33,387 bases of DNA from an uncultured Clostridium sp. GTDB taxonomy: Bacteria; Bacillota; Clostridia; TANB77; CAG-508. Shown in pieces: positions 4,243 to 19,295 of this stretch (its first letter is position 1; every line of letters begins with the position of its first letter). Location of the stretch: the NCBI GenBank assembly GCA_964415805.1, contig CAYQBQ010000002.1:1-33387 (forward strand). Reading direction: 5' to 3'. The translations under genes and the position numbers were made by a program. The notes below the pieces were generated by a model. It had not been told where the DNA came from. It was given only the letters and a program-made list of their open reading frames with translations, and did not search any database.

Positions 4243-5322
4243 TTATATATTTGTAATGTCACTTTCGTTTATATCTGCATTGTCTAAATATTCTTCTTGT
4301 TTTTTTAATATTTCTTCTAATCCAGTTCCTTTATAATATGTTGATATTGTAAAGTTTAATCTTGGAAATGCGCTTATTTTTTCATTTTCTTCAGAAATTA
4401 TTTCTGTTTCTTCTATTTTGTCTTTTAAATCATTTATATATTCTGCAACACCATCTATCTCAACTCCAGAGAACGCAATAACAAATTTTGGTCCCATATA
4501 TCTTACAAAAACATACTGTTCAGATATATTTTCTTTAATATATTTACTTATTTTTTCTATTACTTCATTTCCTAATTCTCTTGAGCATTTATGATTTATT
4601 TCTTCCAGGTTTGTTATTCTAAACATACATATTGTTGATGTTGTATATTGATCTATGATTTTTCTTCCTTCTCCATATAGATATTCTTCTGAATATAATC
4701 CTGAATATAAATCTTTCCTTACTATAGTTTCAAGTGTTTTTTGATGTACTACTGTTTTTAAAACAGATACTATATTATCTTTTATTACCTCTAAAACGGT
4801 TGTATCTACATTGTCAAAATCATGAGGTGTTCCACTTTCTATAATCCAATATCCTATATATACATTATCTATATATAATGGGAAAAATATTGCTGATTTT
4901 GCTCTTCCAAATTCCATTTGTTGATATGGCAATCTTTCTTGTTCATTATTTACAGTAACATATTTAGGGGTTGCTTGTGCTATACTATCTTTGAACATAT
5001 CTACATCCTGAAGTGATTTTAATGCATCCCAATGTCTTTCATCTACATTTGATGCTTTTATTTCATATTCTGCTCCATTAAAAACAACTATAGTAGAATA
5101 TTTTATTTCATATTTTTCTATTAAGATTTCATTTACTTTCTTTATTTTATCATCTACTGTAGATGTTTCGCCTATTGCACTCATAAAATCTTGTACTACT
5201 GATAAATTATTTATCTTTTGATTGATATTTTTATACGTTTGTATCTTTTTATGTATGCTAAGGTTATATATTATTAGCCCTAAAACTGCTATTATTAATA
5301 TTATCACTATTACTACTAACAC
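4243..5322 (-). CDS. Membrane-anchored sensor-like protein with a degenerate (probably inactive) GGDEF domain
   Basis: 359 aa with a GTG start behind AGGGGGGG and one N-terminal TM segment. A middle domain of about 150 aa may be GAF-like. The C-terminal region aligns by eye to GGDEF: DLYSGLYSEEYL resembles DxLTGLxNRRxF, and ICMFRITNLEEIN replaces the D-x-D metal site. VRYMGPKFVIAF replaces RxGGDEF. Confidence 0.6.
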   Translation of the reverse strand: MLVVIVIILIIAVLGLIIYNLSIHKKIQTYKNINQKINNLSVVQDFMSAIGETSTVDDKIKKVNEILIEKYEIKYSTIVVFNGAEYEIKASNVDERHWDALKSLQDVDMFKDSIAQATPKYVTVNNEQERLPYQQMEFGRAKSAIFFPLYIDNVYIGYWIIESGTPHDFDNVDTTVLEVIKDNIVSVLKTVVHQKTLETIVRKDLYSGLYSEEYLYGEGRKIIDQYTTSTICMFRITNLEEINHKCSRELGNEVIEKISKYIKENISEQYVFVRYMGPKFVIAFSGVEIDGVAEYINDLKDKIEETEIISEENEKISAFPRLNFTISTYYKGTGLEEILKKQEEYLDNADINESDITNI

Positions 5323-5345: not shown

Positions 5346-7652
5346 TTAATATTTATTTTTCATTTGATTAAGTGTTGAATTCATACTAGGTGTAAATCCA
5401 TTAGTTTCTACTCTTGGTGGTACATATGTTGATTTTGCAGATACCAATGGATATACCATGTTTGATAATTCATTTAGTATTTGTACCATGTTTTTTGGAT
5501 ATCCTTTAATTGAAACTTCACAATTTATTATATTTTCTAGATACCTTGTATACACCTCGTCATTAAATGGAACTGTTATATATCTTATTGTGTTTTTATC
5601 AAATAACTCTGTCATAAATGACATTGCTGGATCATTGTAATATGCCATTCCGCCTATAATAGTTTTATCATTAACTCCTCTAACTTTTACTGCCTTATTT
5701 AATATAACTCTTAATTTGCTTTGATTTAATATATCTTTTGATTTTAATTCTCTTAAAAAAGCTGTTAAAGGTTGAATTGTTAACACATCAAAAGATTGAA
5801 CTAAATATATTTCTTGAGTTTTTTCAAAATACTCTAATGGTGTGTAAAAATCACAATCAATTAAAACTAATGAATGTTTTTTCAATAATGTTTGTAATAT
5901 TGTTCCTGCGTTTTCTATTCCTTCTGTTTCTTCTGGTAATGATGTATATACAGTTAAATTTTTGTTTACTTGTATTCCATCTGCTACACCTTGTAATAAG
6001 TTATTTATGCTGTCCATTGCTGTTTTTCTTAAATTTTCTTCATTTTTTGTATATATATAATATGAATTTCTATTTTTTGTTGTATCTAGTATTGCTGTAT
6101 CTATACCCATTTTAGATGTTATTTCTGCTAAATTATTTACTATAAATGATGTTCCATTTTTACTTGTTCCTATAAAACATGCTACTTTTTTATCTGAAGT
6201 TAATAGTCTTGATATATCAACATCTTCATATGATTGATTTATATTCTGTAAGCTTGTCTCTTGTTGGTATCCATAATTGTTATAATTTGTATTTGTTTGT
6301 TGACTATTTTTTGTTTCAAACTCTGGCATCTTTGTTTCTTCTTGTTCATCTTCAAATCCTGGTAATATTGTTTCATTTTCTTCAAATCCTGGTAATATTG
6401 TTTCTTCTTGTTCATCTTCAAAACCTGGTAATAAAACATCTTTTTCTTCTTCCTCTTCAAATCTATGTGAAACATTGTTATTATCTTCTTCATCTAATCC
6501 TGGTAAAACCATAGATTCCTGTTCTTCAGGCACAGGATTTTTTCTAGGTCTACCCCTTCCTCTTTTTGGAGTTTCTACTGTGTTTTGTTCTGGTACGGGA
6601 TTCTTTCTAGGTCTACCCCTTCTTCTTTTTGGTTCTTCAATAACTGGTTCTATTACATCTTTATTGTTTTGTTGTTCCATAATTTTCTCTGGTTCCTCTT
6701 TTATTTCGTCATCAAACATAGGTCCAATTTTTCTTACTTCAGTTACAACCTTATCATTTTTTATTGTTCCAATTGGTTTTATTTCACTCTTTGTCTTTGC
6801 CATTTTTCTAGTACTATTCATATTCACTGAAGATGGTATAACTACTGGTTTTGAAAGTATTCTTTCTCTGTTACTTGTATTTAATAATTTGCCACTAGTT
6901 CCATCTGTTTGTTCCTTCTTTATACTTTTTGATCTTAGGTTGTCAGATATTTTACTATTGAAAGATATTATTTGTTGATATTTTGATGATTTTTCTTCCA
7001 ATACAGCTCTAACGTTTAATGGTAAAAATTTTGTTATTATTCTTAGTTGAGCATCATTATACTGTGATGCAATATTGTCAAAACTTTCTACATATTTTTT
7101 TTCATCTTTTCCAAGTCTTTTGTAATGTGCTAAAATATTTTGTATTTCCACTTCACTAACATCATTCTCATTTTCAGATTGATATGACACATCTTCAGAA
7201 TCAATTTTATAATATGATTTTGCTTCTTTTTTTACTCTTGGTTTATTTAATAATTTACATACATTATCTACACTTCTATCGTTCCCTAATAATGCATTAT
7301 AAATTCCTATTCCAAATAATTTTACTAACATTTCCTCGCTCTTTTCTCTTCTATCAGAGCAAATCAATATAATTGGAATATCTTCTCCTTTTAAATTAGA
7401 TGCTTCATCACTAATACTATCCAACTTATCAAATATAAATTTGTCTATTTGATCATATTGTGTATTAGTAAACGCTTGCAACTCTTCACTTATTACTACC
7501 CTATCATAATTTTTGTCCTTTTGTAATTCTTTTAATATTGCATTGAAGTAATAAACATTTTTATACGAAATTATTTCTTTATATTCTTTTTGATATCTTT
7601 TTACTATTGATTCTGATATCTCCTCATTACTTACAGCAAATAAAACTTTCAT
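5346..7652 (-). CDS. Multidomain hypothetical protein: receiver-like N-terminal domain, two AT-hooks, acidic LPGFE repeats, and a ParA/MinD/CpaE-like C-terminal domain with a degenerate P-loop
   Basis: 768-aa ORF behind a GGAAGGGGG Shine-Dalgarno sequence. The N-terminal 140 aa or so have a flavodoxin/CheY-like beta-alpha pattern (KVLFAV..., RVVISEE..., IPIILICS...). KRRRGRPRKNPVPE and KRGRGRPRKNPVPE lie in the middle. The C-terminus has KKVACFIGTSKNGTSF and LVLIDCD, reminiscent of Walker A and B in ParA-like ATPases. Confidence 0.6.
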   Translation of the reverse strand: MKVLFAVSNEEISESIVKRYQKEYKEIISYKNVYYFNAILKELQKDKNYDRVVISEELQAFTNTQYDQIDKFIFDKLDSISDEASNLKGEDIPIILICSDRREKSEEMLVKLFGIGIYNALLGNDRSVDNVCKLLNKPRVKKEAKSYYKIDSEDVSYQSENENDVSEVEIQNILAHYKRLGKDEKKYVESFDNIASQYNDAQLRIITKFLPLNVRAVLEEKSSKYQQIISFNSKISDNLRSKSIKKEQTDGTSGKLLNTSNRERILSKPVVIPSSVNMNSTRKMAKTKSEIKPIGTIKNDKVVTEVRKIGPMFDDEIKEEPEKIMEQQNNKDVIEPVIEEPKRRRGRPRKNPVPEQNTVETPKRGRGRPRKNPVPEEQESMVLPGLDEEDNNNVSHRFEEEEEKDVLLPGFEDEQEETILPGFEENETILPGFEDEQEETKMPEFETKNSQQTNTNYNNYGYQQETSLQNINQSYEDVDISRLLTSDKKVACFIGTSKNGTSFIVNNLAEITSKMGIDTAILDTTKNRNSYYIYTKNEENLRKTAMDSINNLLQGVADGIQVNKNLTVYTSLPEETEGIENAGTILQTLLKKHSLVLIDCDFYTPLEYFEKTQEIYLVQSFDVLTIQPLTAFLRELKSKDILNQSKLRVILNKAVKVRGVNDKTIIGGMAYYNDPAMSFMTELFDKNTIRYITVPFNDEVYTRYLENIINCEVSIKGYPKNMVQILNELSNMVYPLVSAKSTYVPPRVETNGFTPSMNSTLNQMKNKY
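6318..6443 (-). repeat. In-frame tandem repeats encoding four (I/L/M)(L/P)(P/E)GFE-acidic units
   Basis: The 24-nt string ttcaaatcctggtaatattgtttc is identical at 6351-6374 and 6381-6404. The 22-nt string tttcttcttgttcatcttcaaa is identical at 6335-6356 and 6401-6422. The peptide reads LLPGFEDEQEETILPGFEENETILPGFEDEQEETKMPEFE. Confidence 0.85.
6529..6632 (-). repeat. 63-nt-period duplication encoding two AT-hook motifs
   Basis: The 41-nt blocks 6529-6569 and 6592-6632 are near-identical. Both contain ...ttctaggtctaccccttc.tctttttgg, which encodes PKR(R/G)RGRPRKNPVPE. Confidence 0.85.
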
Positions 7653-7655
7653 TTG

Positions 7656-8063
7656 TTACCCCCTTCCAAATTTTACAAACATTGCAAATGCTAATGGTAA
7701 AATTTGGCATATAATTAATAATGTAACGAATGTTACAATTAATCCCATTCCTTTTTCTAATGTATCTAGTTTTCTTATACCTATTATGTATTGATGTATA
7801 GCTCCAATTGCTATTCCTAAAAAGCAAAATGGTATACTGTATATTCTAACTAGATTTAAAATATATGCAACTAATCCATATGCATCAGAGCCATATTTTT
7901 CTTGATAATCTTGAAGTGATTTTGTTTGTGTTTCTTTTATTTCCACAAGTTTACTTTCTGTTTTTTCATCTATTGCTTTTTCCGCAGAATATACTTTATT
8001 TGTACATGTAAATATTCCTAATATTAATATTGACATTGTAAATATTGCTATTATTTTTTTCAT
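7656..8063 (-). CDS. Small secreted/membrane protein (signal peptide plus two C-terminal TM helices)
   Basis: 135 aa behind a GGAAGGAG Shine-Dalgarno sequence. The signal-like N-terminus is MKKIIAIFTMSILILGIFTCTNKVYSA. A hydrophilic stretch of about 40 aa follows, then two hydrophobic helices split by RKLDTLEKG. It stops 3 nt before the 768-aa gene. Confidence 0.6.
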   Translation of the reverse strand: MKKIIAIFTMSILILGIFTCTNKVYSAEKAIDEKTESKLVEIKETQTKSLQDYQEKYGSDAYGLVAYILNLVRIYSIPFCFLGIAIGAIHQYIIGIRKLDTLEKGMGLIVTFVTLLIICQILPLAFAMFVKFGRG

Positions 8064-8312: not shown

Positions 8313-8882
8313 TTAAATATTTGTGGAAGTATTATCTCCATCAAATGGAATAAATTTATTAACAATACTTTGTTGTTCAACACCTTCTGCTCTAAAAGTC
8401 ATGAAAGATGTATTTATTTTATTCTCAATTTGTTCTTCTACTTCTTCTTGATTAGCATGTTCCGCTAATACAAGTTCACTAACTAATATTTGTTTTGCAT
8501 TATTAAGCATTTTCTTTTCTCCTGTAGAAAGACCTTTTTCTTTTTGTTTAAAACTTAAATTTCTAACTACATCTGCTACTTCGTAAATGTCTCCACTTTT
8601 CATTTTGTCCATATTATCTCTATATCTTTTATTCCAATTTTTTTCCATTTCTGTTTCATCTTCACTAAGTACTTTAAAAACTTTTTCTGCTGATTGTTTA
8701 TCTATTATATTTCTAACACCTACTTCTTCTGCCTTAGCTGTTGGTATCATTACTTTTACATCACTTGGCATCTTTAAGATGTAGTATGATTGCTTCTCAC
8801 CTAAAATATCTTTTTCTTCTATTGAATCTATTGTCCCTGCTCCATGCATTGGATATACTATTTTGTCTCCTACATTAAACAT
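8313..8882 (-). CDS. CarD/CdnL-family RNA-polymerase-binding transcriptional regulator
   Basis: FNVGDKIVYPMHGAGTIDSIEEKDILGEKQSYYILKM is the CarD_CdnL_TRCF N-terminal domain. The track start is a TTG that abuts the Shine-Dalgarno sequence, so I chose the ATG of MFNVGDK, 9 nt after AGGGAG. Confidence 0.85.
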   Translation of the reverse strand: MFNVGDKIVYPMHGAGTIDSIEEKDILGEKQSYYILKMPSDVKVMIPTAKAEEVGVRNIIDKQSAEKVFKVLSEDETEMEKNWNKRYRDNMDKMKSGDIYEVADVVRNLSFKQKEKGLSTGEKKMLNNAKQILVSELVLAEHANQEEVEEQIENKINTSFMTFRAEGVEQQSIVNKFIPFDGDNTSTNI

Positions 8883-8996
8883 GTAAGTCAACTCCCTTCT
8901 CTTCGTTCTATCTCATTTTTTCAGCAAAAAAATATTATAAAGTTAAGTCAACATGAAATAACTTTATTGGATTTTTTAACCATATTTATTATACTA

Positions 8997-12742: not shown

Positions 12743-14497
12743 TTATAGTGTTTTTTCTTCTTCATCTTTTTGTTCTTTATCAGGAACAAAATTTCCGTTC
12801 ATTTTTATTCCTGTTTTTCCACTTTCTAAATCTACATATTTATGTGGATATATTTGAGATATTTTTTTACATTTCTTTGTAACTAAATTACCTAAATGTT
12901 TAGTATAATTATATTTTAGATCAACAGGATTAATCGTTTTATTCTTATATATTATCTCAGATTCTCTTATATCTGTTAAAGGCATTAATATTTTTGTTGT
13001 TAAATTTCTACCTTTATATCTCATATCGTTATATCCTTCGTACATTGGTATAACTGCACTGTTTTTTAATGTTTTAAAAAATTCTATTATATCCTCTTTA
13101 TCTGCATGCAGTCTTAGTGGCATATTAAAACCAGGGTAATCAATTCCTAATAAAATTTTTTTCTTATCTATCTGTGCTTCTTGTGGGTTTTCTGGCATAT
13201 ATCCCCAATTTGTTATTTTTCTATTATAATCTATTTGTAACAATACTTCTTTTAGCATATTACTTTTTGACAAATATATTATATCAATGTTATTTCGACT
13301 TGATTGTCCAGATAATAGATCTTTATCAAAATTGTTCTCACTTTCTGGTAATATTGTATTGAAATAATCTGTATATTCTTCTTTTAATTTAGGGCTAATA
13401 TCTTTCATATTCATAACTGAATATTTATAATTTTCAGTTTCATAAAATTTTGTAATTTGTCCTTTTATTTTATTTGAAATATTATCACATAATTTCATTT
13501 TTAATATAGTTTTTATTATTTGTTCATCACTCAAACAATCTTCATAGTCCTCGTTTTCTAATTTTCCCCATAAATTTAAAGTATCTGCAATAAATATTGC
13601 TTCTTTTACATTCTCGATTCTTTTTGTAAATCTATTTTGCCAAAATGCATTTAATACGGACAATTTTTCTACATCCAAGGTATCTATATATTCATCTGTA
13701 AATATATTTTCTAATCCTATATCTTTATCATCTTTTTCTGTTCTTAATTTATATTGCATTTTTGGCATTGATAACTCTTTATAGTCCTCGTTTTGTTGTT
13801 TCAATGGTTCTTCTAATAAATCATATTTTTTTAAAAACCTTCCTGATAGTTTAAAACATTTCTTTTCCAACTCAAATAACGTATTTTTAAGGTAATCTTT
13901 TCTATACTCTATATATCTATTTAAACTTTCTCTTTCATCATCAGTCATATATATTTTTGTATACTGAATAGCATCTTTAAGTTCAGGATCTTCTGCAATT
14001 TGTTTTTTGAATTTTCTTTTTTCATTTTCGTCTTTTGGATTTATTATTCTTTCTATGAAATTTTTTATTTTTTTATCTATTTCTTCTTTTCTTATGCTTT
14101 GTACCATTAATTTCACTTCAAATTCAGCACATTCTTCTTCATTACCTTTTATTTTGTATTCTTCATCCGATAAATTAATTTTTTTCAAATCTTCATCTTT
14201 TATTTTATTATAAATTTTATCTACCAAACGTGGATTTGCGCTTAATATTTGTAATATATTTTCTTGTCTTTGTATTGAACCTGTTCCTGATACCTTTGTA
14301 TATTCTTCTATTTCATTATCAAATTCATCATATATAACATCTCTAATTTCAATATTTTCATCGCCAAAATATCTTTTTAATTTCACAATGTACTTATGTA
14401 AAACCTTTAAATTTTTTCTTGCATATATTATCTGTTTTTGTTGATTATCTATTGATTTTTTTGCTTTTTCCAGTTCCTTTTTAAAATTTATATTCAT
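12743..14497 (-). CDS. Hypothetical protein, 584 aa, no recognisable domain
   Basis: Long uninterrupted ORF behind a GAGAGG Shine-Dalgarno sequence. The N-terminal half is Lys/Glu-rich and helical. The C-terminal third is more complex (NWGYMPENP, GIDYPGFNMPLRLHADKEDIIEFF, PMYEGYNDMRYKGRN). No TM segment or signal peptide is visible. Confidence 0.6.
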   Translation of the reverse strand: MNINFKKELEKAKKSIDNQQKQIIYARKNLKVLHKYIVKLKRYFGDENIEIRDVIYDEFDNEIEEYTKVSGTGSIQRQENILQILSANPRLVDKIYNKIKDEDLKKINLSDEEYKIKGNEEECAEFEVKLMVQSIRKEEIDKKIKNFIERIINPKDENEKRKFKKQIAEDPELKDAIQYTKIYMTDDERESLNRYIEYRKDYLKNTLFELEKKCFKLSGRFLKKYDLLEEPLKQQNEDYKELSMPKMQYKLRTEKDDKDIGLENIFTDEYIDTLDVEKLSVLNAFWQNRFTKRIENVKEAIFIADTLNLWGKLENEDYEDCLSDEQIIKTILKMKLCDNISNKIKGQITKFYETENYKYSVMNMKDISPKLKEEYTDYFNTILPESENNFDKDLLSGQSSRNNIDIIYLSKSNMLKEVLLQIDYNRKITNWGYMPENPQEAQIDKKKILLGIDYPGFNMPLRLHADKEDIIEFFKTLKNSAVIPMYEGYNDMRYKGRNLTTKILMPLTDIRESEIIYKNKTINPVDLKYNYTKHLGNLVTKKCKKISQIYPHKYVDLESGKTGIKMNGNFVPDKEQKDEEEKTL

Positions 14498-18644: not shown

Positions 18645-19295
18645 CTACACTTCTGTATAGTCACTTGGAATATTGAAATAACTGTCATTTACATTTCCAT
18701 AACTTATATCTATTTTAATTAATTCTTGATTTTCTCCAACAATTGTTTTTATATAAGAAAGCTCTCCATTTTTGTAATATAATCTAGTTTTTGCATACTC
18801 TAGATTATTTACTGACAATTCATCATCAAATAGAAATCCTTGAAAATTCGGTATTTCCTCATATTTATATTGTTTTCCATTTATATTTTCTTTACCAATT
18901 TTTAAATTTGCTGTATCTATTTCTTCAAATTGTTGTTTTATTTCAGTTAGTATTTCATCATTGTTTTCATATTTATAATAGTTTTTTTCACTATCATCTA
19001 AATAATACGTATCTCCATTTTTTACAATATATTTTTTTGTTTTACCATTTGTTGTTATTTCTTTATATGCTTGGCTTCCTTTTATCATTATAATAATTTT
19101 ATTTTTTTCGTCAACTGTTCTTGTATAAGTTATTTCATTTGTATTATTTATTTTTTCATACATTTTGGATGTTAAAGTATTTTCTTGATTATCTGTATTT
19201 TTGTTCTTTATTGAAAATACAATTAATCCTATAATAATTGCTAATACCACTATAGCTATAATTATAAAAATAATATTTCTCTTTGACTTTGACAT
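18645..19295 (-). CDS. Hypothetical membrane-anchored extracytoplasmic protein
   Basis: 216 aa behind an AAGGGAG Shine-Dalgarno sequence. It has an N-terminal TM anchor followed by a Tyr/Asn/Lys-rich, beta-type sequence. No motif was recognised. Confidence 0.55.
   Translation of the reverse strand: MSKSKRNIIFIIIAIVVLAIIIGLIVFSIKNKNTDNQENTLTSKMYEKINNTNEITYTRTVDEKNKIIIMIKGSQAYKEITTNGKTKKYIVKNGDTYYLDDSEKNYYKYENNDEILTEIKQQFEEIDTANLKIGKENINGKQYKYEEIPNFQGFLFDDELSVNNLEYAKTRLYYKNGELSYIKTIVGENQELIKIDISYGNVNDSYFNIPSDYTEV

Follow-up and report, generated by a model that had tools for sequence, protein, structure and literature searches.

The 33,387-nucleotide (nt) stretch analysed here, referred to as the window (positions 1 to 33,387 of contig CAYQBQ010000002.1, forward strand, assembly GCA_964415805.1, from an uncultured Clostridium sp.; GTDB lineage Bacteria; Bacillota; Clostridia; TANB77; CAG-508), carries on its minus strand an open reading frame (ORF) of 768 amino acids (aa), P0001 (5346..7652), in which a receiver-like N-terminal domain and a MinD/ParA-like C-terminal domain are connected by a variable linker with two AT-hook motifs. 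Each hook is a 15-residue peptide with an R-G-R-P core flanked by Lys/Arg and Pro, and the two lie 21 residues apart: hook 1 at residues 341-355 (core R345-P348; 6588..6632, minus strand) and hook 2 at residues 362-376 (core R366-P369; 6525..6569, minus strand). They are followed by an acidic tract at residues 377-445 (6318..6524, minus strand) with a net charge of -23 and LPGFE-type repeats. An earlier note on this DNA had quoted both peptides, and they are present as quoted in the ORF; its coordinates were essentially right, although the start given, 6529, falls 4 nt inside hook 2. The 63-nt period and near-identity of the coding blocks, likewise noted there, hold, but the blocks (6522-6569 and 6585-6632, 42/48 identical, 88%) are 48 nt long and not 41. 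As judged from their sequence and conservation, the two motifs are genuine canonical AT-hooks and an old feature kept in one bacterial family, for which tethering to DNA is the putative function.

Chance occurrence of the motifs can be dismissed, since about 8e-6 matches to the extended hook motif are expected from amino-acid composition when all ORFs with 100 aa or more in the 1.12-Mb, 31% GC assembly are counted, whereas two were found, both in P0001. When presented as an isolated 49-aa segment, the hook region matches the Pfam AT_hook model (PF02178) in two stretches with 21.6 bits (E 1.6e-4) at a cut-off of 17.4 bits, while the full-length protein reaches only 12.5 bits (E 0.14). The corresponding segments from all 80 species-level orthologues, which derive from genomes of uncultured gut Clostridia and show 44-84% identity to P0001, match the same model at E up to 10, with a best E of 3.4e-8. 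Over 159 hook copies the first R of the core is kept in 158 and the G, R and P in all 159, position -2 is R or K throughout, positions +4 and +5 are basic, with Lys at +5 in 157/159, and the flanks beyond +6 consist of Pro, hydrophobic or acidic residues. Hook 2 agrees at 9/11 positions with the Reeves AT-hook consensus in the form quoted in PMC11354804. Conservation rises to 0.67 at the hooks, against 0.20-0.25 in the rest of the linker, which is of variable length. The near-invariant RGRP core, the basic and Pro flanks and the isolated segment scoring above the Pfam cut-off thus bear out the proposal that the peptides are of the HMGA type.

AT-hooks combined with an acidic flank are a hallmark of the eukaryotic HMGA proteins. 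In P0001 orthologues, the stretch of 60 aa behind hook 2 carries a net charge of -16.9 +/- 3.2 across all 80 species, and the most negative 60-aa stretch ranges from -8 to -47 in the hook-bearing family versus -1 to -10 in sister families. A strongly acidic tract is hence specific to the hook-bearing family and arose in the same family as the hooks; hookless members of this family keep it. Multiple hooks and a highly acidic flank, named as the hallmarks of an HMGA-like domain in the case of CarD (PMC2919716), are both found in P0001. By sequence, hooks and acidic tract together constitute an HMGA/CarD-like module within a putatively disordered linker, low conservation and variable length being indirect signs of such disorder.

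Exactly two hooks are located at the same place in 78 of the 80 species-level orthologues, down to 44-50% identity, in 119 of the 120 closest database homologues and in 17 of the 18 genera sampled from the window's family (one representative per genus), with a core-to-core spacing that is most often 21 residues and stays within 19-23 in 70/80 species. The earlier note had taken the likeness of the coding blocks as a sign of recent in-frame duplication and had proposed comparing orthologues for the copy number of the 21-aa unit. This comparison reveals an old, fixed two-copy state and thereby speaks against a recent event, as do the single gain deduced from the tree (see below) and the codons of the two copies. 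Of the latter, 14 encoding the same amino acid can be compared in the window; 10 are identical and 4 differ synonymously, at an expectation of 9.4 identical ones calculated from the gene's own codon usage, so that protein constraint and extreme codon bias fully explain the likeness at the DNA level. Over all species, however, codon identity between the copies is 0.87 versus 0.72 expected, and in one clade (L015-L031, L060 and L063) the hook-coding blocks are 94-96% identical in DNA, with flanks also shared, which suggests occasional gene conversion or re-duplication elsewhere in the family, none being detectable in the window. Expansion of the hook copy number does occur in rare lineages, as seen in P0213, a homologue from the representative library whose six hooks are arranged as tandem repeats of 25 residues.

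Contigs from three independent bovine-gut DNA data sets span the hook region and show the same two-copy form without insertions or deletions. One contig from run X1 joins position 6629 to 6522 with 18 foreign letters; as its depth is 2.4 versus 76.9 and it has mismatches, it most likely stems from a related species and was rejected as a copy-number variant. Contigs of one metatranscriptomic library match 6295-6583 and further stretches of the gene with 99-100% identity, which may reflect either transcription or DNA carry-over. At positions 5531 and 5559, T and G of the window are replaced by C and T in all three DNA runs as well as in the contigs of the RNA library, so that two fixed differences separate the window assembly from the bovine-gut populations.

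The N-terminal domain (residues 1-238; 6939..7652, minus strand) is modelled as a receiver (CheY) fold up to about residue 150, followed by a helical part, with a predicted local distance difference test score (pLDDT) of 74.7 and a mean column identity of 83%. Its best structural match is the N-domain of CpaE2 (4myr, Z 13.5, root-mean-square deviation (rmsd) 2.4 over 121 residues), other receivers scoring within about 1-2 Z of it, CpaE (4n0p) with Z 12.5. The phospho-acceptor Asp of receivers is absent, as the end of predicted strand 3 (residues 51-55) reads RVVISEE with E56 invariant, a mapping based on predicted secondary structure only. The model thus presents the N-domain as a pseudo-receiver. 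For the C-terminal domain (residues 478-768; 5349..6221, minus strand; mean column identity 63%), an alignment-based model of residues 472-768 with a pLDDT of 81.6 and a predicted template modelling score of 0.83 has the SIMIBI-class MinD/ParA fold (Foldseek E 1e-8), matching ParA 3ea0 with Z 20.0 (rmsd 2.6, 221 residues aligned), FleN 5j1j with 19.6, MinD 4v02 with 19.5 and TadZ 3fkq with 17.4. Its P-loop reads GTSKNGTS, so that both lysines of the deviant Walker A motif are absent and no G-K-[ST] is present; the invariant columns are G24, T25, K27, N28, G29 and T30 (alignment A1). A hydrophobic strand that resembles Walker B and ends in Asp is retained (invariant D128 and D130, same alignment). 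The last 13 residues are predicted to form a helix, albeit of low hydrophobicity and with a weak hydrophobic moment of about 0.3, leaving a MinD-type C-terminal membrane helix unsupported.

P0001 is a near-universal core gene specific to its order, with an orthologue in 200/201 genomes of the order, covering five families and genome sizes of 0.8-2.2 Mb; the N-domain profile gave no match at E up to 1e-5 in 290 genomes from other orders of the same class. The globular domains have no match in Pfam and NCBIfam at E up to 1, and the full-length protein produced nothing but sub-threshold noise on these databases. Profile searches of the PDB with both domains and a PDB search with the hook segment returned nothing usable, and an Atlas look-up of the family gave unnamed clusters and generic ParA-type names, nothing else. 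A literature search found no paper on the P0001 family and, among the matches listed, none linking an AT-hook with MinD, FlhG or TadZ.

In 21 orthologues from four sister families, both globular domains are kept and RGRP is absent. The earlier note had named orthologues lacking the RGRP core while keeping the rest of the protein as evidence that would speak against AT-hooks; such orthologues were found in these four sister families, which partly bears the objection out. Because the sister orthologues keep both domains without the core, DNA binding would be an add-on of one family and not the core function of P0001. In a tree built on the two globular domains, the hook-bearing family forms one clade with a support of 100. 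A hookless member from genus 9 is nested firmly within this clade (support 99-100), and another from genus 12 also falls inside it, on a long and weakly resolved branch. The fewest changes on the tree are three, namely one gain of hooks at the base of the hook-bearing family and two losses. AT-richness as the driver of the gain was rejected, since the hookless locus of family f4, with a GC content of 25%, equals the 26-28% of the hook-bearing family.

The linkers of the sister families are wholly different, consisting of long Glu/Ala/Lys/Arg repeats, of Pro-Lys-Val-Glu repeats or of 62-67 residues. The loci in question are L085-L090, L096 and L098 in f5, L099, L101 and L103 in f2, and L091-L094 in f3, with Glu/Ala/Lys/Arg-rich repeat arrays of up to 510 aa, Pro-Lys-Val-Glu repeats and a 62-67-aa stub. 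Re-invention of the linker in each family suggests a length-tunable spacer. A 1702-aa orthologue (L115, G001:C13:8700-14400) has an 1175-aa linker with a net charge of -337 and, even so, exactly two hooks 19 residues apart.

Directly upstream of P0001, the minus strand encodes a small membrane protein of 135 aa (7656..8063), as deduced from hydropathy, with an N-terminal hydrophobic segment and C-terminal hydrophobic segments; its gene has this position at 79/80 loci of the family and at most loci of the sister families. On the downstream side, the cassette contains a gene (4243..5322, minus strand) for a 359-aa membrane protein with a weak GGDEF match (Pfam E 2.3e-8); this gene adjoins the P0001 gene in 80/80 family loci and also in family f3. 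In f4 and f5 loci (among L081-L098), it was not found beside the P0001 gene, which is directly followed there by ruvX; what stays constant is therefore the pair of small membrane protein and scaffold. Further downstream in the window follow ruvX and then DUF1292, this set of neighbours being conserved in 74-80 of 80 loci.

Situated 250 nt upstream of the cassette is a stand-alone gene of the CarD/CdnL type (CarD_TRCF_RID and CarD_C; 8313-8891, minus strand). A CdnL gene occurs within 4 kb of the P0001 gene in 0/80 related loci, and the idea of a split CarD was consequently rejected as resting on a coincidence. Pilus genes are missing from the cassette, and P0001 lies outside a tad/flp cluster. 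PilB/PilT-like ATPase genes (T2SSE) are present on another contig of the same assembly (G000 C55:4978-6622), the larger one with an in-frame TAA within the match; genes of this type elsewhere in related genomes show no linkage to P0001 and are uninformative for the hooks. Four more ORFs of the window, all on the minus strand, lack a Pfam match at E up to 0.001: 299 aa at 106-1005, 164 aa at 2498-2992, 584 aa at 12743-14497 and 216 aa at 18645-19295.

Compared with known systems, the hooks resemble those of HMGA1/2 (PF02178) in the GRP core with R on both sides, in the Lys/Arg and Pro flanks and in that several of them share a non-globular segment bordered by a highly acidic region. In contrast to HMGA, a small free chromatin protein with three hooks, P0001 is a bacterial two-domain protein of 768 aa with two hooks in its linker, its acidic tract contains LPGFE-type repeats, and its binding is predicted from sequence. 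In CarD of Myxococcus xanthus, bacterial AT-hooks and a contiguous acidic region are likewise joined to a non-DNA-binding protein-interaction domain (PMC2919716). However, CarD has four hooks fused to the RNA-polymerase-binding CarD_CdnL_TRCF domain, whereas P0001, from the phylum Bacillota, has two, with a pseudo-receiver on one side of them and a MinD/ParA fold on the other. The mycobacterial regulator WhiB7 has one canonical C-terminal RGRP hook, and structural studies, as related in PMC11354804 (see also PMC10432532), confirmed HMGA-like binding for it. WhiB7 differs in having a single hook, in being a small iron-sulphur transcription factor that owes its promoter specificity to sigma-factor binding, and in lacking an acidic tract and scaffold domains.

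With respect to domain order, a receiver-like N-domain followed by a MinD/ParA-like C-domain is also typical of TadZ/CpaE from Tad/Flp pili, and TadZ of E. rectale (3fkq) has the highest identity (16%) in the match list of the C-domain. Unlike these proteins, P0001 lacks a sequence-model match and pilus genes in its cassette and has a 240-aa linker with hooks as well as a lysine-less P-loop, and its C-domain scores higher against ParA, FleN and MinD than against TadZ. With the ParA/MinD ATPases (Soj, MinD, FlhG/FleN, McdA, BcsQ), P0001 shares the fold (Z 17-20 over about 220 residues) and the Walker-B-like strand with Asp. That family uses the nucleoid or the membrane as its surface, or matrix (see PMC11407121). 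In P0001, by contrast, the deviant Walker A lysines are replaced, the signs of a C-terminal amphipathic helix are weak, and contact with DNA would be made via the linker hooks and not by an ATP-bound dimer.

Replacement of the Walker A lysines in the MinD/ParA-fold domain makes another mode of surface attachment plausible, and tethering to DNA is the putative function that we assign to the hooks, with a probability somewhat better than even. Binding would involve insertion of the RGR cores into the minor groove at A/T runs. With a minimum length of 6 bp, A/T runs are found once per 30 bp and make up 29% of the assembly, which supports the expectation of the earlier note that a genome this AT-rich offers abundant potential targets. 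Spaced about 21 residues apart, the two hooks could bind neighbouring A/T runs together, giving a bivalent, sequence-unspecific and ATP-independent attachment to the chromosome. Hook binding is probably modulated by the acidic tract, which would damp or gate it, as does the acidic region in HMGA and CarD (PMC2919716). The pseudo-receiver and the lysine-less MinD/ParA domain, in turn, may hold protein partners, the small membrane protein being the first candidate, and P0001 would then be a cytoplasmic scaffold linking a membrane-associated complex to the nucleoid.

Several observations weigh against this tethering function. AT-hooks can also bind RNA, and an acidic tract beside the hooks could neutralise them. 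Orthologues at 21 sister-family loci have both domains and the partner gene but no hooks, f4 being among these families equally AT-rich (25% GC at the locus), and two lineages within the hook-bearing family lost them, so that the hooks are dispensable for the core, ancestral function of P0001. In addition, helix prediction and hydropathy gave no clear support for an amphipathic membrane-targeting helix at the C-terminus, and the putative membrane link accordingly draws on gene adjacency.

Among the alternatives, an unlikely one that nevertheless survives best is that the hooks are a short linear motif not directed at DNA, serving to pair with the acidic LPGFE tract, to dock a partner or to contact anionic lipids. 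The strongly acidic tract directly beside the hooks in every species, the appearance of both in the same family and the character of P0001 as a scaffold with degenerate enzymatic sites would suit it. A simple charge partner or lipid patch, however, would have no need for a G and a P that are invariant in 159/159 cores; the motif matches the DNA-binding consensus and the Pfam model exactly, and the acidic tract is kept in hookless members. Less probable still is binding to RNA, that is, to structured or AT/AU-rich transcripts in place of the chromosome. RNA-binding extended AT-hooks have been described, as in the eAT-hook of Tip5 (PMC11354804), and ruvX is among the downstream genes of the operon; yet the eAT-hook, in the description given there, is characterised by basic patches that are 12 residues away from its GRP core, whereas the basic residues of P0001 adjoin the core and the residues beyond +6 are those of the canonical DNA type. 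Finally, that the hook pair is a recent in-frame 63-nt duplication, perhaps a slippage-prone tract of variable copy number, is highly improbable, for although the 88% identical blocks, the closer likeness and elevated codon identity of copies in other lineages and the six tandem hooks of P0213 would fit, it is contradicted for the window by the same-place pair across species and genera, the single gain, the chance-level codon likeness and the contigs of three independent studies without insertions or deletions.

Tethering to DNA via the hooks hence being favoured, a further-reaching proposal, possible but rather doubtful, is that an HMGA-like module was independently invented in the linker of a dead receiver/MinD-type scaffold, turning the latter into an ATP-independent nucleoid-to-membrane tether in one family of small-genome gut Clostridia. 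If true, this tether would serve, for example, nucleoid occlusion or the positioning of an envelope complex, and would take the place of the nucleotide-dependent binding to surfaces by which ParA/MinD proteins are defined. A description from 2010 names CarD and its orthologue from Stigmatella as the sole prokaryotic proteins that possess an HMGA-like domain (PMC2919716). The module of P0001 would, if this proposal is true, follow myxobacterial CarD as the second such domain in prokaryotes and be the first within a protein of the positioning type.

The repeat itself illustrates that, in very AT-rich genomes, near-identity of short coding repeats is no proof of a recent origin, as strong codon bias combined with protein constraint gives rise to it. 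For the family, the HMGA-like module is fixed at two copies, mostly with 19-23 residues' spacing, across one abundant uncultured gut lineage, and its host is a core protein that is nameless in databases. With their hookless orthologues, the sister families provide a clean natural experiment, and the comparison could show what a MinD/ParA-type scaffold gains from attachment to the nucleoid and how scaffolds of this kind function after loss of the ATPase site.

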